A stretch of 64,000 bases of DNA, taken from the NCBI GenBank assembly GCA_944391965.1, contig CALXVH010000001.1, forward strand, positions 38,828 to 102,827. Reading direction: 5' to 3'. Positions 11,499-26,939 of the stretch are shown in pieces (position 1 is the stretch's first letter; each line of letters opens with the position of its first letter). The DNA is from an uncultured Clostridia bacterium (lineage in GTDB: Bacteria; Bacillota; Clostridia; TANB77; CAG-508). Below the pieces are notes generated by a model, which searched no databases, was not told the DNA's origin, and saw nothing but the letters and a program-made list of their open reading frames with translations. The position numbers and the translations under genes were made by a program.

Positions 11499-11568
11499 TT
11501 TTTACCTCTTTTCTACAGTATACCTGCTAATGCAACAATTTTATCATATTAGTTAAATATTAACAAAT

Positions 11569-11919
11569 CTATTTTGAAATTTCATCCATTATTTCTTTAC
11601 ATTCATTCCAATCTGATGCTTTTATAAAATTATAATCTTTTGATAGTTTTGAGATTATCTCGTATGTATCATCAGTCGAGTCCAAGTCTACCATTATAAT
11701 TCCCTTTGTTAGTTCTTCTTTTCCATATAACAGCTTACAAATTATATTTCTTGTAAAACATTCTATTTTATCTTCTTGATTTTTGGCAGCTATTATTACA
11801 TATATTCCATCTTGCTTAAATTTGGTACAAGCAAAATAATATCTGATAGTTTTTGCAATTTCTATTAAACCATATAATGCAAATGTCCATATTATAGCAT
11901 TTGGTATAAAATCCTGCAT
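11569..11919 (-). CDS. Small membrane protein with truncated GT2-like segment (hypothetical)
   Basis: 116 aa with an N-terminal TM. VIIAAKNQED...MVDLDSTDDT resembles the N-terminal part of family-2 glycosyltransferases, but the ORF is too short for a catalytic domain. Confidence 0.5.
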   Translation of the reverse strand: MQDFIPNAIIWTFALYGLIEIAKTIRYYFACTKFKQDGIYVIIAAKNQEDKIECFTRNIICKLLYGKEELTKGIIMVDLDSTDDTYEIISKLSKDYNFIKASDWNECKEIMDEISK

Positions 11920-12061
11920 ATAATCACCTTCTTATATAGTATATGTTTTTGGCTATAAAATGTTAAAAGCACTTTGTTTTTTACAAAGTGCTGATATATA
12001 TAAACGAAGAGGGCTAATTCTTCTAATTTATAACTATTATTTTAGAATAATTAATAACTTG

Positions 12062-13066
12062 TTATTTTCTTTTTTTGCCATCTAAAGCATCAAGATTATC
12101 TAAAGCTTTTCCTGTTCCTAATGCCACACAAGAAATCGCATCTTCTGCAATCATTACATTTATACCTGTTTTTTCTTGTAATAATTTATCTAAACCATCT
12201 ACTAGGCAGCCTCCGCCTGTCATGTATATTCCTCTATCACTTATATCTGCTGCAAGTTCTGGTGGAGTTTTTTCTAAAACTGAATGAACAGAGTCCACAA
12301 TCATCATTGCTGGCTCTATCAGAGCTTCTAGCATTTCACTAGAATATACTGTAATTGTTTTTGGTAAACCTGTTGATAAATCTCTTCCTCTTATATCCAT
12401 CTCTACATCTTGTATTTTTGGATAAACACAGCCTATATTTATTTTTAAATCTTCTGCTGTTCTTTCACCTATCATTATATTGTGTTTTCTCTTAATATAT
12501 TTTACTATTGCTTCATCTAATTTATCTCCTGCAACTTTTAAAGAAGTACTTACAACAGAACCGCCTAAAGAAATTACAGCAATATCTGTAGTTCCTCCTC
12601 CAATATCTACTATCATATTTCCACATGGTTTAGAGATATCTATTCCAGCACCTATTGCTGCTGCTATTGGTTCTTCTATTAAATATACTTTACGAGCACC
12701 TGCTTGTGATGCTGCATCTATTACTGCTCTTTTCTCTACTTCTGTTACTTGAGAAGGTATACATATCATTATTCTTGGTGCGAATATAAATTTACCACAC
12801 ACTTTATTTATAAAATATTTTAACATTTTTTCTGTTACTGTATAATCTGATATTACCCCATCTCTTAGTGGTCTAGTGGCTACGATATTTCCCGGTGTTC
12901 TTCCTAGCATTCTTCTTGCTTCCTGACCTACTGCAAGAACATCTCCAGAATTTTTATCTACAGCAACAACAGAAGGTTCTCTTAAAACAATACCTTTGCC
13001 TTTTACATATGCAATTACTGTTGCTGTACCTAAATCTATTCCTATATCTTGACCAAAACCAAACAT
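12062..13066 (-). CDS. mreB: Rod shape-determining protein MreB/Mbl
   Basis: 334 aa, actin-like ATPase motifs DLGTATV and DIGGGTTD. Confidence 0.95.
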   Translation of the reverse strand: MFGFGQDIGIDLGTATVIAYVKGKGIVLREPSVVAVDKNSGDVLAVGQEARRMLGRTPGNIVATRPLRDGVISDYTVTEKMLKYFINKVCGKFIFAPRIMICIPSQVTEVEKRAVIDAASQAGARKVYLIEEPIAAAIGAGIDISKPCGNMIVDIGGGTTDIAVISLGGSVVSTSLKVAGDKLDEAIVKYIKRKHNIMIGERTAEDLKINIGCVYPKIQDVEMDIRGRDLSTGLPKTITVYSSEMLEALIEPAMMIVDSVHSVLEKTPPELAADISDRGIYMTGGGCLVDGLDKLLQEKTGINVMIAEDAISCVALGTGKALDNLDALDGKKRK

Positions 13067-13229
13067 TGATACTCTCCTTTTCTATTATTATTACAAGTCT
13101 GTTACAATTATATTACAAAAAATTTAAAATAGCAATAAAAATATTTATATAATTTATAATATTTTTATTGCTATCAATTATATTACAATGTAATTAATAA
13201 AATTTCAAGTATTTTTATAAGTTTATTTA

Positions 13230-13742
13230 TTAAAATGGGAAAAGTCCAAATAAATATCCAACTGGCATATAATAAATTACAATTAATCCTCCTGCTACAA
13301 GAGCCATCTTTTGAGTTTGAGTAAGTTTAATATCAATAGGATTTAATAAGTAATCTGGTGCTGTATCTGACATTGAAATTTCTACTCTCTCTGTTCCTTG
13401 ACATTTATATTTTATAGTAAAGTATTGGCTTTCATCTGGTTCTAATTTAAATATTTGCGCATATCCAGTATTTATATTATTATCATACTCTGAATAGCAG
13501 TCTAATTTAATAAATTTATTTTCTATAGTACTTCCTGTAGTATTTGTTATACATCCATAAATATAACCATTTGCATTTGTTGCTTTTGAATCTATTATTT
13601 CTATTTTTGGATTTTCAAATAACACTGTACATTCTTTTGGCTTATACATTGATATTATTATTAATTTTGACATTATTGAGACAAATATAAATAATAATAC
13701 TAATAGTAGTGCATATTTAAGATATTTCTTAAATTTATCCAT
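13230..13742 (-). CDS. Hypothetical membrane protein (N- and C-terminal TM, beta-rich middle)
   Basis: 170-aa ORF with TM helices at both ends. No family is recognised with confidence; it may be FxLYD-like. Confidence 0.55.
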   Translation of the reverse strand: MDKFKKYLKYALLLVLLFIFVSIMSKLIIISMYKPKECTVLFENPKIEIIDSKATNANGYIYGCITNTTGSTIENKFIKLDCYSEYDNNINTGYAQIFKLEPDESQYFTIKYKCQGTERVEISMSDTAPDYLLNPIDIKLTQTQKMALVAGGLIVIYYMPVGYLFGLFPF

Positions 13743-13804
13743 TTTTTACTCCTTTTTCCTTCATTTTTCCCCTATATTATATAACAGTCTACATAATTTG
13801 TAAA

Positions 13805-13870
13805 TAGAATTTAGGGACGTTCCTTTTTTTCTACCTAAATTATGGATTCGAAGAACGCCCCCAAATTCTA
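13805..13870. repeat. Family-1 repeat, degenerate composite with different outer arms
   Basis: TAGAATTT-AGGGACGTTCC...GAAGAACGCCCCC-AAATTCTA. It has one inverted and one forward degenerate core, enclosed by TAGAATTT/AAATTCTA arms. It lies 4 nt from the stop at 13875. Confidence 0.65.
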
Positions 13871-13874
13871 TAGC

Positions 13875-14246
13875 TTATATAAATTCTCCTGTACTTTCTA
13901 CCATATATTTATATATTGAATCTACTAAACTTGCTAAATATTCTACGTCATCAATCGTTACATCATTTGTATCTACTTGATTATATTCTGCATTTATATT
14001 TAACATTTCTTTAAATAATTTTTCGTCTTTATCTTCATATGTATTTACTATATTCATTACAGTTGAATTTGGCATATCCATATTGAATTTATGTTTTATA
14101 TATTTAATATTTATATACTCTAAAATTGCTGCTAATTTAAAATATGCTTCTTTATAATCTTGCTCTTTTATTAATTTATCAATTATTGCTAATTTTTCTT
14201 TTAAGTAATTATTCTTTTCTAAATTTTCTACCATTTCTTTATCCAT
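13875..14246 (-). CDS. Hypothetical acidic all-helical protein (orphan cassette gene 3)
   Basis: 123-aa ORF. Its start overlaps the upstream stop (TAATG at 14244-14248), implying translational coupling. It contains no Arg residues, and I recognise no family. Confidence 0.6.
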   Translation of the reverse strand: MDKEMVENLEKNNYLKEKLAIIDKLIKEQDYKEAYFKLAAILEYINIKYIKHKFNMDMPNSTVMNIVNTYEDKDEKLFKEMLNINAEYNQVDTNDVTIDDVEYLASLVDSIYKYMVESTGEFI

Positions 14247-15271
14247 TATCTTTCATCTCCTTCATCATTTGTTTTGTATAACATTTCAAGTTCATCTTTT
14301 TGTAGTCCTGCTTTTACAGCGATTTCATGAGCTTCTCTACGAGATTTTAGTTTTCTTAAAGATTCTATTAATTCCGGTGTATCTTGTAACATAAAACTTT
14401 CTTGATATTCAGATGTTTTATCAATTAGCAAAACATTATCTGCATTACAAATTGGATATCTATATTCATTATCTGATAATAAAGTAATTAGTTTTTCATC
14501 ATATATGTGTACAGACATCTGTCCAAAACAAGGTACATCTATAACAAAAACATTTTCTTCCCTTTTGCCATTTTTTACTTTTGCTAGTCCGAAAGATTGC
14601 GTTTTATCTTCTTTAAGTATTTTTATACTTTCAGCTATTGCTTCATCTTTTATTGCCATACAATCTACATATCCTTTAGCTAATGCATCATATCCTCTTT
14701 TTCTCAAGATTTCTATTTCATCTATAGTTATTCCATTTTTTGCTAATTGTCTTTGAGCGATATTAGCAGCCTTAGTATTCATATTGCTTTCTGCAATAAA
14801 ATATCTATGTGCTGATTTTGCTATCTGATCTATTTCTTTCCCATCAAAGTGATATATTAAACTTTTATAACCTGCGTTTTCTCTGTTTTTTTCAGTAAAC
14901 ATATCACTTAACATTTGTTTCTGTACATCCCTACAAGTATGTGCTATACGATTTGAGTAAAATATTTCTAATGCCTTTTCTGTTGATGGTATTCCTTCTG
15001 CAGATTCCATAATCTCATGTAAATCAAAATCATAATCTAATTCTATTTGTTTAGCTTCAGGCTTCTTCTCTTCAAATTTTCTAAAATCAATTCTATATCC
15101 AGGAAAAATTCTTTCAAGTGTACCTGCTATAAGATTTAACCTATCCATATTATCTAACATCTTATAGTTTTTTAGTTCAAATTTATATCCTTGTTTTCTA
15201 AAAAAATCAACAGCTCGACTTGTTTTTTCCATTCTCATTTCTCTATTTATTTTTTTATAATTTATTCTCAT
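14246..15271 (-). CDS. Hypothetical protein (orphan cassette gene 2)
   Basis: 341 aa from the ATG at 15271, which follows AAAGGTG. The ORF track uses a GTG 3 codons earlier. It has no TM and no recognisable catalytic motif. Confidence 0.6.
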   Translation of the reverse strand: MRINYKKINREMRMEKTSRAVDFFRKQGYKFELKNYKMLDNMDRLNLIAGTLERIFPGYRIDFRKFEEKKPEAKQIELDYDFDLHEIMESAEGIPSTEKALEIFYSNRIAHTCRDVQKQMLSDMFTEKNRENAGYKSLIYHFDGKEIDQIAKSAHRYFIAESNMNTKAANIAQRQLAKNGITIDEIEILRKRGYDALAKGYVDCMAIKDEAIAESIKILKEDKTQSFGLAKVKNGKREENVFVIDVPCFGQMSVHIYDEKLITLLSDNEYRYPICNADNVLLIDKTSEYQESFMLQDTPELIESLRKLKSRREAHEIAVKAGLQKDELEMLYKTNDEGDER

Positions 15272-15299
15272 TAATATCACCTTTTCAAATATATGGGTA

Positions 15300-15320
15300 G
15301 GACAGGCGTTACGCCTGTCC
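15300..15320 (-). other. Perfect GC-rich hairpin overlapping the stop codon of the 79-aa gene
   Basis: GGACAGGCG-TTA-CGCCTGTCC, a 9-bp stem. No clear U-tract follows on the minus strand. It sits between cassette genes 1 and 2. Confidence 0.7.
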
Positions 15321-15548
15321 CTGTGTCAATTCTTTAACTTGGTCGAGATATGCTTTCAGCATATCTTGAACCTCCGGTGATTCCTCGTCTTCCATCAAAT
15401 CTTTGACTGCGATTTCAATATCCGCAAGTTTCATTTCGATGGCTAATCTTTCGTTAGAATTGACACTTTGTGGAGTTTTCTTTCTGAACGCTTCAATCTT
15501 TGCATTCACTTCAGAAACATATGATGTTATCTCATGTTGCTTTGCCAT
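15309..15548 (-). CDS. Hypothetical small helical protein, G+C-elevated (orphan cassette gene 1)
   Basis: 79 aa from the ATG preceded by AGGAGGA; the ORF track starts 8 codons earlier. My hand count is 94 G+C in 240 nt (about 39%), against roughly 28% in the flanks. Confidence 0.6.
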   Translation of the reverse strand: MAKQHEITSYVSEVNAKIEAFRKKTPQSVNSNERLAIEMKLADIEIAVKDLMEDEESPEVQDMLKAYLDQVKELTQGQA

Positions 15549-15672
15549 TATGTATCCTCCTATTTTTGTCAACTGTTTACGTTACACCATATATTATAGC
15601 ATATTTTTCTAGTTATGTAAATTATTAGACAAATTTATTGTAATGTCCTCCTATAAAAAACAGACAAAAATA

Positions 15673-15699
15673 GGGATTTGAGGAACGTCCCCAAATCCC
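15673..15699 (+). repeat. Family-1 hairpin repeat, canonical unit
   Basis: GGGATTT-GAGGAACGTCCCC-AAATCCC, 11 nt from the pyk stop. The minus-strand RNA follows with UAUUUUUG. Confidence 0.85.
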
Positions 15700-15710
15700 T
15701 TTTATCGTTA

Positions 15711-17165
15711 TTATATTTTTAAGATACCTCCAACTGTTTTATTAACAGCATATTTTGATTTTTCTTTGCTCATTATTTGTGGTCCTCCACATAAAACAGC
15801 TGTATCTCCTTCTTCTAAGTTTCCTAATTCTATTAATTTTTCTACACCTTTTTCAATTGTGTCATCAATATCTGTTCCATTTTTGATTAAGATTGGGTAT
15901 ACATTCCAAATTGGTCCTAATTGATTGTATACTTTTTCTGAATCTGTAATAGCAAATATTGGACATGCTGCTCCATATCCTGCTAATCTTCTTGCAGAAT
16001 TTCCTGTATGTGTGTAGTCTATTATAGCATCAGCTTTAATATCTCTTGCTGTTACACATGTTGTATATGCTGCATGTGATTCGATATCTGCTTCTTCTAT
16101 TTTCCAATCTTTCTTTGTAAATCTCTTCCAGTAATTAATTGTTGGTTCTACACTTTTAGCAACTTTTACCATTGTGTTAACACATTCTAATGGATAATCT
16201 CCCATTGCTGTTTCTCCAGAAAGCATTATACATCCTGTTCTATCGTAAATAGCATTTGCAACGTCACTTACTTCAGCTCTTGTTGGTAATGGGTTGTTTG
16301 TCATGCTTTCTAACATTTGTGTAGCTGTTATTACTAATTTTCCTTCTTCGTTACATCTTTTAATAAATCTTTTTTGTACAACTGGTACTTCTTCGAATGG
16401 AACTTCTACAGCCATGTCACCACGAGCTACCATTATACCATCACAAGCTGCTAAAATTTCTTCGAAGTTGTCTATTCCTTCTTGATTTTCGATTTTAGCT
16501 AAGATTTTAACATCTTTTCCGCCATTATCATCTAATACTTTACGCATTTGGGCTACATCTTCTTTATTTCTTACAAATGATGCAGAAACATAATCAAATC
16601 CAACTCTTGCTCCATTTGATAAGTCGTTTATATCTTTTGGGCTTAAGAATGGTATTTTTATAGAAACACCTGGTACATTTATACTTTTTCTTGATCCTGC
16701 ACCACCATCATTTAATACAGTTCCTACTATATCCTTATCTTTAATTTCATCTACTCTTACTTGAATTTTTCCATCATCAATTAAAATTAAGTTTCCTGGT
16801 TTTACATCTTTATATAAATCTTTATAAGATAATGATGTACCTTCTTCATCTCCTAATCTATCTTCATAGAAGAATGTGAATTTTTGTCCTTCTTTTAATT
16901 GTACTTTTACATCTCTTCCGGCTTTATTTAATGCTGTTCTTATTTCTGGTCCTTTTGTGTCTAGCATAATAGCAACAGGTAGACCTAATTCTTTTCTTAT
17001 TTCAAAAAATCTTTCTATTTTGTCTTTTTGTTCCTCAAAATCTCCATGAGAAAAATTAATTCTTGCAATAGACATTCCAGCTTTCATTAATTCATCCATT
17101 CTATTTTCTACTGCTGGTCCTATTGTACATACAATATTTGTTTTTCTTAAATTTCTTTCTTTCAC
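15711..17165 (-). CDS. pyk: Pyruvate kinase
   Basis: 484 aa with motifs NIVCTIGP and MVARGDMAVE. GTG start with an AGGAGG SD. Confidence 0.95.
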   Translation of the reverse strand: MKERNLRKTNIVCTIGPAVENRMDELMKAGMSIARINFSHGDFEEQKDKIERFFEIRKELGLPVAIMLDTKGPEIRTALNKAGRDVKVQLKEGQKFTFFYEDRLGDEEGTSLSYKDLYKDVKPGNLILIDDGKIQVRVDEIKDKDIVGTVLNDGGAGSRKSINVPGVSIKIPFLSPKDINDLSNGARVGFDYVSASFVRNKEDVAQMRKVLDDNGGKDVKILAKIENQEGIDNFEEILAACDGIMVARGDMAVEVPFEEVPVVQKRFIKRCNEEGKLVITATQMLESMTNNPLPTRAEVSDVANAIYDRTGCIMLSGETAMGDYPLECVNTMVKVAKSVEPTINYWKRFTKKDWKIEEADIESHAAYTTCVTARDIKADAIIDYTHTGNSARRLAGYGAACPIFAITDSEKVYNQLGPIWNVYPILIKNGTDIDDTIEKGVEKLIELGNLEEGDTAVLCGGPQIMSKEKSKYAVNKTVGGILKI

Positions 17166-17310
17166 AATAATTACCTCCTAGAATTTGACACTAGATGGTA
17201 TTATATCATAAAAAATTTTGCTTAACAATACATTTTTCAACATTTTTTATGATAAAAAATTTTTTCGTTACTGGTGTAATTGCAAGCTAAAACATATATG
17301 TAACAAAATT

Positions 17311-18420
17311 TTATTTATTTAAAGCTTCATCCATTACTTTACTTAGATATTTCATACTATTTAAACATTGGTCCATTGTATTTCCAGTTGCTCCTATTTC
17401 CATTATTGTAGCAGCTTTTGCAACATGTTGATTATATCTTGAATTTCTTACCATTATTGGTTTGAATAACCCTGGGTATAGTTCATTACCCTTTTCTACA
17501 ATTTTTATCGCATATTTTAAATTTTGTACCCATTGGCTATGTGTAAGCCCTCCTCCATCTGTTCCTATTACAAACATTATTTGTGCTACATAGTCATCAC
17601 CAATCTTAACTGTAGGTGCATATGTGCCAGCTTCTCCCACTGCATCTCTATGCAAATCTATAACAATTTGAGTATTAGGATTTGCTGCTAAGTCATTTTT
17701 TATACTAGTAAGAGATCTATTATATGATCCACTATATGCAGGATAATCATGATATGTTTCATCATGTATTACATTAAATCCATAATTTGTTAACCTGTCT
17801 TTTAACTCTCTTCCTACTCTCACAACAGAGAAATTTAAATCTGTTGTTCTAAAATTACCACTTGGTGTATATTCAAAACCTCTACTTTGTGTGTAGCTTT
17901 CACAAGTATGTGTATGATAGATAATAATATCTTTTTTATTCTCTAATTCTATGTCTGGAATTAACATTTCTTGTGTTAATTCATATTTTGATTCATTTTT
18001 TATTTGTACACCATTATACTCATTTGTATATTTAGCATTAATATTTCCTCCAGATACTACTTCTGTTTGTAGCCCTGTCTGAGCTTCTTCTGTACTTATC
18101 GCCGCCACTTGTGTTTGATTTTGAATCTGAATTGTATTTTCATTTGCTATTTGTTCTGTTTCATTAGATTTTATATATTTACTCATTTGCAATTCTGAAC
18201 TTAATATTTGTTCTGTATTATCTCTATCTATACTTTTAAATTCTTTTAGCGAATTTCCACTAGTAGAAATTATTGTATCTTCTATAACTGGAATTAATGA
18301 TAAATTTTTTATTTTATCTTTTCCAAGCAAAAATATTTTTATTATAAGCATTATTAAAAAAGCCATTATAACTAAAGTCATAATAGCATTTTTTGCTTTT
18401 ATTACTCTCATATTTATCAT
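17311..18420 (-). CDS. spoIIP: Stage II sporulation protein P
   Basis: IIIYHTHTCESY signature and an N-terminal TM. The start is set at the ATG after AAGGGTGA; the ORF track starts at a GTG 7 codons upstream. Confidence 0.8.
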   Translation of the reverse strand: MINMRVIKAKNAIMTLVIMAFLIMLIIKIFLLGKDKIKNLSLIPVIEDTIISTSGNSLKEFKSIDRDNTEQILSSELQMSKYIKSNETEQIANENTIQIQNQTQVAAISTEEAQTGLQTEVVSGGNINAKYTNEYNGVQIKNESKYELTQEMLIPDIELENKKDIIIYHTHTCESYTQSRGFEYTPSGNFRTTDLNFSVVRVGRELKDRLTNYGFNVIHDETYHDYPAYSGSYNRSLTSIKNDLAANPNTQIVIDLHRDAVGEAGTYAPTVKIGDDYVAQIMFVIGTDGGGLTHSQWVQNLKYAIKIVEKGNELYPGLFKPIMVRNSRYNQHVAKAATIMEIGATGNTMDQCLNSMKYLSKVMDEALNK

Positions 18421-25646: not shown

Positions 25647-26939
25647 TTAAGCATATGCATGTCTTTTTTTGAAGCTTAATAAATTCGTAATTTCTCCTTG
25701 TGTATTTTTTGCTTTCTTTGTTTTCTTTGCTTTTTCTTGCTCCAATTCTCTTCTTTGTTTTTCTGCCATTGTTTGACATATTGCTTTTTGATATATAAAA
25801 TGTGTATCTTGTGCTATTTTTGTCCAATTGTATTGTGATTTTACTTTTGCTTTTGCAGCTCTTGATACCTCTGCACATAATCCTGGATTATATAATAGTT
25901 CTAATATTGAATCTGCAATTGAATTTGGATTACCTGCATAGCTTTTCATTCCATTTTCTCTGTGTTGTACGATTTCATTTAATCCGCCTACATCTGAAAC
26001 AACTACTGGTGTTCCGGATAACATTCCTTCTAAAGCAACTACACCAAATGGTTCATATGTACTTGGGAATACTGCTACATCTGCACATTTATACATTTTA
26101 GTTACTTGAGCTAAGTTTAAATAGCCTGTAAAGTATACTTTATTTTCTATACCTAATCTTCTAACTTCATCTCTTAATTCGTCTATCATTCCGCCTTTTC
26201 CAGCAATTATTAGTTTTGAATCGTGATAACCATTTAATACTTTTGGCATTGCAGCTATTAAATTTTGAATTCCTTTTTCGTAAACTAATCTACCTACATA
26301 AAGAATTATTTTTTCATTATCTGCTGCATACTGTCGTCTGAAATCATAATCTCTTTCTACTCCATTATATAAGTTTAGGTTAACTCCGTTTGGTACTACA
26401 TTTATTTTTTCATATGGAAGACCGAATAATCTTTGTAACTCATTTTTCATATAATTACTATTTACTATTACTTCTGTTGATTCATATGTTAACATCCATT
26501 CTGTATCATTAATATATCTTTGTACTTCGTCATGTATTCCAGAATTTCTTCCTGATTCTGTTGCATGTATTGTTGCTATAATTGGTATTTTAAATGAATC
26601 CTTTAATGTTTTTGCAGCATATGCTACTAACCAATCATGAGCATGTATTACATCAAATGGGCCCTCTTTGTTTATTAATTCTGTTGCTTTTGATATTAAG
26701 TTAAAGTTTAATTGCATAATCCAGTCTATGAAATTATTTGGATTAATCATATAGTTATTTACTCTATATACTTTAACACCATTATCATCTTCAAAGTCTT
26801 CTACATTTCCTTCCTTATATGTAACTACAGTTACCTCGTGACCATCTTTTATTAGTCTATGAGATAAATCATGCACTACTCTTGCGATTCCCCCTACTAC
26901 TCTTGGTGGATATTCCCATGTTAGCATTAAAATTTTCAT
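25647..26939 (-). CDS. Glycosyltransferase family 4 (GT-B, group 1)
   Basis: 430 aa with EPFGVVALEGMLSGTPVV (the EX7E region) and a Lys-rich C-terminal tail. Confidence 0.85.
   Translation of the reverse strand: MKILMLTWEYPPRVVGGIARVVHDLSHRLIKDGHEVTVVTYKEGNVEDFEDDNGVKVYRVNNYMINPNNFIDWIMQLNFNLISKATELINKEGPFDVIHAHDWLVAYAAKTLKDSFKIPIIATIHATESGRNSGIHDEVQRYINDTEWMLTYESTEVIVNSNYMKNELQRLFGLPYEKINVVPNGVNLNLYNGVERDYDFRRQYAADNEKIILYVGRLVYEKGIQNLIAAMPKVLNGYHDSKLIIAGKGGMIDELRDEVRRLGIENKVYFTGYLNLAQVTKMYKCADVAVFPSTYEPFGVVALEGMLSGTPVVVSDVGGLNEIVQHRENGMKSYAGNPNSIADSILELLYNPGLCAEVSRAAKAKVKSQYNWTKIAQDTHFIYQKAICQTMAEKQRRELEQEKAKKTKKAKNTQGEITNLLSFKKRHAYA

Follow-up and report, generated by a model that had tools for sequence, protein, structure and literature searches.

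We analyzed a 64,000-nt window (the whole stretch of DNA examined, whose positions serve as coordinates throughout) from contig CALXVH010000001.1 of an uncultured Clostridia bacterium, the source genome being a 1.5-Mb assembly that is 92% complete. Within the window we identified a three-gene cassette, g1-g2-g3, that lies wholly on the minus strand between pyk and a gene for a 170-amino-acid (aa) membrane protein. The cassette is real and dispensable, a three-gene module that is confined to one order and belongs to an undescribed family; g2 has a confident, unmatched structural model, a complex of g2 with g3 is predicted, and the first cistron carries a conserved RNA structure. For its role we put forward a tentative reading, which we hold to be possible and somewhat short of probable: the trio would be an intracellular effector-partner module of the toxin-antitoxin (TA) type, perhaps a tripartite one, or of the abortive-infection type. 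Genomes compared are labeled G and loci L, each with a number; contig C7 of G000 lies outside the window.

The initial annotation of this DNA had described three co-oriented open reading frames (ORFs) of 79, 341, and 123 aa, and we confirmed all three on the minus strand. The genes, their promoter, and the boundaries of the module are as follows.

15309-15548, minus strand: g1, 79 aa from an ATG; an alternative upstream TTG would give 87 aa.
14246-15271, minus strand: g2, 341 aa from the ATG at 15271, with an AAGGTGA ribosome-binding site 7 nt ahead.
14246-15280, minus strand: alternative form of g2, 344 aa from a GTG at 15280.
13875-14246, minus strand: g3, 123 aa, its start overlapping the g2 stop.
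15593-15621, minus strand: operon promoter, TTTACA-17-TGnTATAAT, TG-extended, with 11/12 consensus matches.
15672-15700, minus strand: repeat-family hairpin that terminates pyk, a 13-bp stem followed by the T-rich tail ATTTTTGTCT; upstream boundary of the module.
13805-13870, minus strand: long repeat-family hairpin directly 3' of g3; downstream boundary of the module.

Judged by its elements, the predicted cassette promoter is of the near-consensus vegetative (sigma-70/sigma-A) type, and the g1 ATG is preceded at 7 nt by a GGAGGA ribosome-binding site, a strong Shine-Dalgarno (SD) sequence at the right spacing. Translational coupling of g2 and g3 through a TAATG, proposed earlier, was confirmed by reading positions 14248-14244 of the minus strand directly: the g2 stop and the g3 start share 1 nt, and this overlap is kept in nine orthologues from the genus. 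The upstream hairpin folds at -23.3 kcal/mol (z = -5.0) and was listed by the terminator scan; the downstream one folds at -33 kcal/mol (z = -5.6), contains repeat-motif matches at 13813-13823 and 13852-13862, and is likely the 3' end of the operon. Because the cassette has its own promoter and hairpins on both sides, g1-g2-g3 is predicted to be a self-contained transcription unit. The adjacent genes, the one predicted promoter, the hairpins at both ends, and the g2-g3 overlap agree with the gene arrangement of a type II TA system.

We determined the distribution of the trio in a genus sample of 26 genomes (the window's and 25 others), an order sample of 401 genomes from 50 genera, and a class sample with 399 genomes scored and 2 unscored. 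The trio was present in 11 of the 26 genus genomes, always in the gap between pyk and the membrane gene; g2 occurred in 10 of the 25 other genomes, each time together with g1 and g3 and between pyk and the 170-aa membrane-protein gene. The gap was cleanly empty in 10 genus genomes, where pyk is followed directly by the membrane gene at a distance of 100-252 bp. Two sites carry scars, that of G024 (L051) retaining only the cassette promoter sequence, with the genes deleted, and that of G010 (L053) retaining the promoter and the final 100 codons of g3; since the scars differ, the losses were independent. There was no clear call for G001 (contig end) or G011 (no membrane-gene match). Furthermore, G023 and G005 have flanks 95-99% identical to those of the window and no cassette, and relatives both closer and more distant have it. 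The scars and these cassette-free close relatives argue that the trio was present early in the clade and was lost several times, so that the empty sites would not all be ancestral. These counts bear out the earlier claim of an accessory module, and universal conservation with a housekeeping annotation, which the initial annotation had named as a finding that would speak against that claim, was looked for and is not the case.

Beyond the genus, g2 profile matches were found in 24/401 genomes and 9/50 genera of the order sample, the window's own genome gave the sole match in the class sample (1/399), and 68 matches reached an E value of ≤0.001 among 1.84 billion representative proteins. Related records are metagenome-assembled genomes of uncultured Clostridia or Clostridium, and the DNA is present in chicken-gut metagenome runs. 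As far as these samples reach, the trio appears to be restricted to one order of small-genome gut Clostridia. In other genera it sits at unrelated housekeeping loci (between engB and serS, between recR and an ABC-F gene, between rnhB and hrcA, and after ileS), in the order g1-g2-g3 or g2-g3-g1, with g1 on the opposite strand in two loci. More distant versions consist of a g2-like protein, a different partner of 148 to 162 aa, and a g1-like protein of 63 to 69 aa. By this pattern the three genes travel together; inspection of the related trio loci showed no integrase or transposase adjoining any of those checked.

The cassette was noted earlier to be bracketed by repeats of one family, a claim that stood up to motif counts and folding. 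The motif GGGGACGTTCC (≤2 mismatches) occurs 15 times in the window versus 0.71 expected, a count reached in 0/100 shuffles. Across the window, these GGGGACGTTCC-core palindromic intergenic repeats are about 20-fold over-represented and form terminator-like hairpins at gene ends; sites include 1065, 4859, 6057, 13813, 15682, 18501, 18535, 34686, and 45707. The cassette lies between two copies of the family, and one copy is left at the clean empty sites in G023 and G005. This single remaining copy makes removal of the cassette by recombination possible, and repeat-to-repeat recombination may have excised it.

That the three ORFs belong to no recognizable family, as first annotated, was borne out in four profile libraries, and on the evidence of these searches the trio is a previously undescribed protein family; a limited literature search found no description of it, which does not by itself establish its absence from print. 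Sequence-profile searches of g1, g2, and g3 against the PDB returned designed repeats, coiled coils, and a lectin neck, all of them noise, and Pfam showed nothing relevant on 19 distant g2 relatives. The AlphaFold2 model of g2, built on an alignment of 19 relatives, is confident (pLDDT 91.2, pTM 0.89), with residues 1-222 predicted to be all helical and residues 225-335 to form a three-strand beta-meander and four short helices. The ESM Atlas gave no usable match for g2, and Foldseek gave nothing at an E value of ≤0.001 among solved or viral predicted structures. The modeled g2 fold is therefore unmatched among solved and viral predicted structures, a statement that does not extend to a claim of a new fold.

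We scored g2 conservation across 30 relatives, some only 20% identical. N107, K208, G228, Q251, H255, Y270, and G322 are invariant, and H111, D245, P247, V254, H315, and K320 are ≥90% conserved. The C-terminal core motif, hVxDxPxxGQxSVH, is invariant, the N terminus is poorly conserved, and an acidic tail ending in a C-terminal Arg is common to most members. Three catalytic assignments were considered by eye. A pol-beta nucleotidyltransferase motif was rejected, as the G228...D245 spacing is wrong, the motif is DxP and not DxD, and there is no inter-strand helix; PD-(D/E)xK and HNH/beta-beta-alpha-Me motifs were likewise dropped. All three proteins of the trio are soluble, with no signal peptide or membrane segment by inspection (GRAVY -0.5 to -0.7).

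The earlier description of the g3 product as small, acidic, arginine-free, and helical was confirmed (123 aa, pI 4.5, zero arginine), and its relatives form 97 clusters, all of 67 to 148 aa, with no Pfam domain and no informative name. In being helical and about 120 aa long, g3 resembles HEPN proteins. The leads in this direction are below trust levels: PADLOC CARF-HEPN matched the window's g3 at E = 2e-4 and 3/16 members at E ≤ 0.01, the ESM Atlas gave HEPN 0.85 and DUF4145 0.83 against a trust level of 0.9, and Pfam found no HEPN domain in any of 16/16 members. Unlike HEPN nucleases, g3 has no arginine and hence no R-x4-6-H motif, the aligned position reading N-x-E-Y-N.

The idea of a small acidic partner was strengthened by complex prediction. 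The g2-g3 pair scored an ipSAE of 0.91 (0.90-0.92 over three runs), and three controls all scored 0.00; the runs had ≥96% of contacts in common, and the partner pLDDT was ≥92. In calibration, the ipSAE mark was reached by 116/157 solved complexes and 2/215 mismatched pairs, counts that apply here only roughly, as our own alignments were used for the g2-g3 prediction. In the model, residues 60-110 of g3 face residues 110/114, 149-175, 201-213, 236-239, and 255-261 of g2, an interface that includes the invariant N85 and Y88 of g3, H255 of g2, and neighbors of H111 and K208; the g2 side is a groove formed by the helices bearing H111 and K208 and the strand that ends in H255. Among sequences of the genus, conservation at the g3 interface falls below that of the remaining g3 residues (0.68 versus 0.77), which is expected of a co-evolving specific pair. 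The model supports g2-g3 as such a pair and leaves inhibition and completion of g2 by g3 undistinguished.

The first gene is set apart by its composition. The initial annotation had put g1 at about 39% G+C against about 28% around it, and we confirmed 39.2% for g1 versus 27.6% for the window, with g2 at 28.1% and g3 at 20.4%. The G+C content at third codon positions (GC3) of g1 is 0.38, which among 1522 ORFs in the genome corresponds to about the 99th percentile (median 0.139, 99th percentile 0.377), and that of g2 and g3 is native at 0.12-0.13. GC3 is also high (0.25-0.46) in all 10 other g1 orthologues of the genus; among distant g1 genes it ranges from 0.11 to 0.42 over 10 loci, several being high and others not. 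The predicted structure of the g1 mRNA comprises these elements.

15262-15600, minus strand: structured g1 mRNA, RNAalifold on 10 orthologues, 48 pairs predicted.
15466-15456/15333-15323, minus strand: long-range 11-bp helix, 9/11 pairs covary.
15509-15502/15491-15484, minus strand: hairpin in the g1 mRNA, 5/8 pairs covary.
15365-15358/15354-15347, minus strand: hairpin in the g1 mRNA, RNAalifold.
15319-15312/15308-15301, minus strand: stem of the terminal hairpin, 6/8 pairs covary.
15300-15320, minus strand: 9-bp GC hairpin, GGACAGGCG-TTA-CGCCTGTCC, whose loop holds the g1 stop TAA (15311-15309); the g2 ribosome-binding site follows about 20 nt further on.
15560-15557/15475-15472, minus strand: candidate SD helix, GGAG with CTCC, the latter in conserved-proline codons; both are invariant and hence give no covariation signal.

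Compensatory double changes support 23/48 pairs versus 10.4 ± 2.2 in column shuffles (0/500 reach 23), and sliding the partners by 1 to 3 columns leaves only 4 to 7 compensatory pairs; the structure was derived from the same alignment that was used for covariation, which holds only 10 sequences, some of them close kin. Rfam gave one sub-threshold match, to the Moco aptamer, at 15262-15391 on the minus strand (21.4 bits versus a gathering score of 36, E = 0.067), which is probably due to chance; it overlaps the 3' part of the structured g1 mRNA and marks the region as RNA-like.

The perfect 9-bp GC hairpin without a U-tract at the end of g1, as first described, is present at 15300-15320 and folds at -18.5 kcal/mol (z = -2.9). 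A hairpin stands at the same place, with a different stem sequence, in 10/11 orthologous loci, L019 being weak, and this conservation as a structure makes the earlier suggestion of a role between g1 and g2 plausible. We rejected it as an intrinsic terminator: its tail, UACCCAUAUAUUUG, has no U-tract, and the terminator scan did not list it. Since it lacks a U-tract and one RNA-library contig runs across it, we infer that the hairpin is a stabilizer or ratio setter and not a terminator. Intercistronic stem-loops and elements of the repetitive extragenic palindromic (REP) type stabilize the upstream part of a polycistronic mRNA. The cassette is like these systems in having a GC-rich, U-tract-free hairpin between cistrons and repeat-family hairpins at the operon ends, and it is unlike them in that the hairpin is the last helix of a covarying structure spanning the first cistron and its ribosome-binding site.

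A foreign origin of g1, which the initial annotation had also suggested, found no support, as the high GC3 is common to all 10 orthologues and coincides with the covarying pairs. For 6/7 orthologues with a computable value, synonymous divergence (dS) in g1 is 0.5-1.3 (it is 0.02 to G003), and the persistence of high GC3 despite this divergence points to selection and not to recent import; selection on RNA structure would explain the composition of g1 better than foreign origin does. The GC3 at the genome's upper extreme, the strong covariation, and the Rfam match would also fit a g1 that is foreign, or a noncoding RNA with an incidental ORF. We consider this very unlikely, as the g1 ORF is intact in 11/11 genus loci and a g1-like ORF accompanies the trio in nine more distant loci, the ratio of nonsynonymous to synonymous divergence (dN/dS) is 0.17-0.49 (5/6 comparisons with a usable value), the SD sequence is strong and well spaced, and the adjoining g2 and g3 have native composition. 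The g1 product is an acidic (pI 4.7) helical protein, whose relatives share only a pattern of helix, F-x3-P, and helix.

Contigs from four chicken-gut metatranscriptome libraries of two studies match g1, g2, and g3 with 90-99% identity, and one of them spans g1 into g2 (15238-15563). These RNA-library contigs are compatible with in vivo transcription, and DNA carry-over is possible. The data are contigs, whose depths and ends are unusable for ranking genes or 3' ends. Three observations were accordingly not used as evidence: RNA contigs of two studies end at 15314 inside the g1 terminal hairpin; contig depths differ among g1, g2, and g3; and a single contig links 13829 to 15666 through 36 other letters, its short side being only 21 letters long. 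The last may be an empty-site relative or a repeat artifact.

We compared the divergence of the cassette with that of seven flanking genes in eight pairwise comparisons within the genus. Cassette dS is flank-like (0.2-0.95 versus 0.1-1.1), which argues for vertical descent and long residence at one site. In contrast, dN/dS is 0.15-0.83 for g2 and 0.28-0.81 for g3 versus 0.00-0.20 for the flanks, and the cassette dN is 5 to 20 times above that of the flanks; values below 1 indicate that the proteins are still functional. By these estimates, the cassette descends vertically with the chromosome, and its proteins appear to be under much weaker or partly diversifying selection. G003 (L014) shows mosaic divergence from the window over 11500-17200, with a dS of 0.00-0.05 for g1, g3, the membrane gene, mreB, and a 116-aa gene and of 0.20-0.26 for g2, pyk, and recD2. 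This mosaic points to recent recombination with probable breakpoints inside the cassette.

Under the effector-partner reading, g2 would be the active component, with two domains and its invariant residues on the N107/H111 helix, the K208 helix, and the D245/Q251/H255 beta-meander. g3, its synthesis coupled to that of g2 by the TAATG overlap, would bind the groove between these conserved elements and keep g2 in check. g1 would be a small acidic helical third component, an adaptor or regulator, and its folded mRNA would most likely stabilize the g1 segment and set either the amount of g1 relative to g2/g3 or the translation of these genes. We infer the harm or activity of g2 on a cellular or phage target, its neutralization by g3, the part given to g1, and a role in conflict; a choice between toxin-immunity and defense would likewise be interpretive. 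The coupled autonomous operon, the tight predicted pair, and the small acidic partner make a TA or abortive-infection type fit better than the alternatives, and patchy repeated loss, fast protein evolution, and occasional TA neighbors favor it as well: the g2-like gene has a ParE-toxin gene (E = 6.9e-10) directly beside it in G647 and a Fic gene (E = 7.2e-14) next to it in G610. Tripartite type II TA operons include omega-epsilon-zeta, paaR-paaA-parE, and toxin-antitoxin-chaperone systems. The cassette resembles them as a small autonomous operon for three cytoplasmic proteins, the large one coupled to a small acidic predicted partner, and in its patchiness, frequent loss, fast evolution, and ParE and Fic neighbors. 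It differs from them in that no protein is related in sequence or fold to a known toxin or antitoxin, no DNA-binding regulator is recognizable, the small partner lies downstream of the large protein, and the cassette is single copy with long vertical residence at one chromosomal site.

Several results weigh against this interpretation. No family above threshold was found for g1, g2, or g3 in Pfam, PHROGs, NCBIfam, or PADLOC; the best hits in PADLOC-DB 2.0 were single weak partial matches (E = 0.0093 for g1, 0.0065 for g2, and 2e-4 for g3), and no toxin, antitoxin, or defense family was recognized for any protein of the trio. Nor did Pfam find a DNA-binding domain in g1 or g3, both of which are acidic. 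The cassette occurs once in the genome, and no integrases or known defense genes lie beside it within the window. tblastn with g2 found no match in 50,697 phage or 72,556 plasmid records, and a scan of viral contigs gave five pattern matches and zero relatives; these collections give no sign of phage or plasmid cargo. The g2 interface is as conserved within the genus as the rest of g2 (0.70 versus 0.70), and a tight complex is equally expected of any obligate heterodimer. A dS equal to that of the flanks indicates, as estimated here, long vertical residence and not frequent transfer, and the sigma-factor links of distant g2-like proteins seem to point elsewhere.

The main rival, which we judge to be on the unlikely side, is that the trio is a lineage-specific regulatory complex acting on transcription, a sigma factor or RNA polymerase being possible binding targets, with g2 as a scaffold that has a helix-turn-helix (HTH)-like C-terminal end and g1 and g3 as modulators. 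In the distant "large" g2 branch (725-830 aa), a same-strand sigma factor was present in 3/3 loci examined, although no sigma gene lies near any canonical trio locus and the relatives with this link align with part of g2 (E = 1e-12 to 1e-14). One of them, in G695 (L104:4780-6957), is a 725-aa ORF that fuses a g2-like region with Sigma70_r2 (E = 1.9e-8, 34.4 bits, cut-off 24). This lone fusion could be an assembly or frame artifact; a search for fused g2 forms of ≥801 aa found none, which is weak evidence. The row in G597 (L105:67-6945) consists of a g1-like gene, an 830-aa g2-like gene, a ResIII/DEAD helicase, and a 535-aa sigma-like protein (Sigma70_r4, 1e-16; r2, 1.9e-4), and in G722 (L101:290-6423) a sortase and a 196-aa sigma factor (r2, 4.6e-9; r4_2, 4.7e-7) lie downstream of the g2-like gene. 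Two distant g2 relatives searched against phage records gave a sigma-region match only. The last helices of the window's g2 have faint HTH-type matches (PHROG 925, E = 0.077; TIGR04111, E = 0.12), but no Pfam sigma (Sigma70 r2/r4) or HTH model was significant on that protein. A vegetative-type promoter and long vertical residence would suit a regulator, yet repeated loss and a dN/dS of up to 0.83 are unusual for a core one. We give a still smaller chance to a new three-component effector module regulated by protein and RNA and limited to an uncultured order of gut Clostridia, in which the large protein would have a fold without precedent among solved structures, the ancestral or large form would act on transcription, and the g1 cistron would double as a conserved structured RNA that controls the complex or is part of it.

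A sporulation- or envelope-related accessory complex seems improbable to us. Lineage-specific sporulation proteins are often without families, spoIIP- and mreB-like genes (named by eye) are neighbors, and in G014, G002, and G009 the same gap holds teichoic-acid-type genes. However, neighborhood is all that favors the sporulation-specific function suggested earlier, which was not upheld: the predicted promoter is of the near-consensus vegetative type, the proteins are soluble, in other genera the neighbors are unrelated housekeeping genes, and RNA-library contigs from gut samples cover the trio. Least credible is a polymorphic toxin set of the LXG-like kind, served by a type VII secretion system (T7SSb), with g1 as a Lap/WXG-like helper, g2 as a helical export domain joined to a C-terminal toxin, and g3 as immunity protein. 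The gene order does recall such sets, a small helical protein preceding one with a helical N-terminal half and a compact C-terminal domain and then a small acidic partner, and in G000 an EssC-like ATPase and a WXG100-like protein are encoded on a contig other than the window's. Unlike LXG systems, the cassette has no LXG domain and no EssC dependence, the C-terminal domain of g2 is conserved and the N terminus variable, and g3 contacts both g2 domains in the model. LXG (PF04740) was not found on g2 at E ≤ 1, LXG and YukC were not found in G000, and an EssC-like ATPase occurs in 4/26 genus genomes, 8/11 trio carriers (completeness 81-100%) having no match at E ≤ 1e-20. We rejected this cassette type on the EssC co-occurrence test, the missing LXG domain, and the conserved C terminus.

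The chromosomal neighborhood downstream of the module contains the following features.

13776-13804, minus strand: promoter of the next gene, outside the module; the conserved flank restarts here and is common to the empty sites of G023 and G005.
13230-13742, minus strand: the next gene, for the 170-aa membrane protein, served by this promoter.

The gap between pyk and the membrane gene (13742-15711 of the window) is a variable spot among genomes. In G014 (L054), G002 (L052), and G009 (L019), genes of the teichoic-acid type (Glyphos_transf, CTP_transf_like, LytR_cpsA_psr, Acyl_transf_3, and an ABC-2 transporter pair) are found there instead of or beside the trio. The 170-aa membrane protein is present in 24/25 other genus genomes. 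Its gene and that for a 116-aa protein with an N-terminal hydrophobic segment (11569-11919, minus strand) flank mreB, and both are conserved and without a family; Pfam gave only weak, sub-threshold matches for the two (best E values, 0.0032 for Glycos_transf_2 and 0.0086 for Sigma_reg_N).

The EssC-like ATPase of G000 lies in an interrupted gene. At C7:18033-26674 (L117), a polysaccharide-deacetylase gene is split into an N-terminal part (26207-26674) and a C-terminal part (18033-18419) by an insert of about 7.8 kb, which carries a serine recombinase (two ORFs), a 248-aa WXG100-like protein, a 1529-aa FHA+FtsK EssC-like ATPase, and an 86-aa YukD-sized ORF and adjoins yqfC/yqfD-like sporulation genes. 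In G023 and G006 the deacetylase reading frame is uninterrupted (274 aa), and in G012, G008, and G003 it is truncated to about 160 aa. The insert looks like a skin-type intervening element with a minimal type VII-like secretion set.

If the effector-partner reading is true, the trio would be a new TA- or abortive-infection-like family with an unmatched protein fold and control of an unusual kind, through a covarying mRNA structure that extends across the entire first gene; if the sigma link holds, the family would be a new transcription-associated module. A gene of high G+C content in an AT-rich genome can reflect selection on RNA structure and need not mean horizontal transfer. The hosts are gut bacteria with very small genomes and no cultured model, and for structural work the family provides g2-g3, a clean pair of proteins that can be tested.

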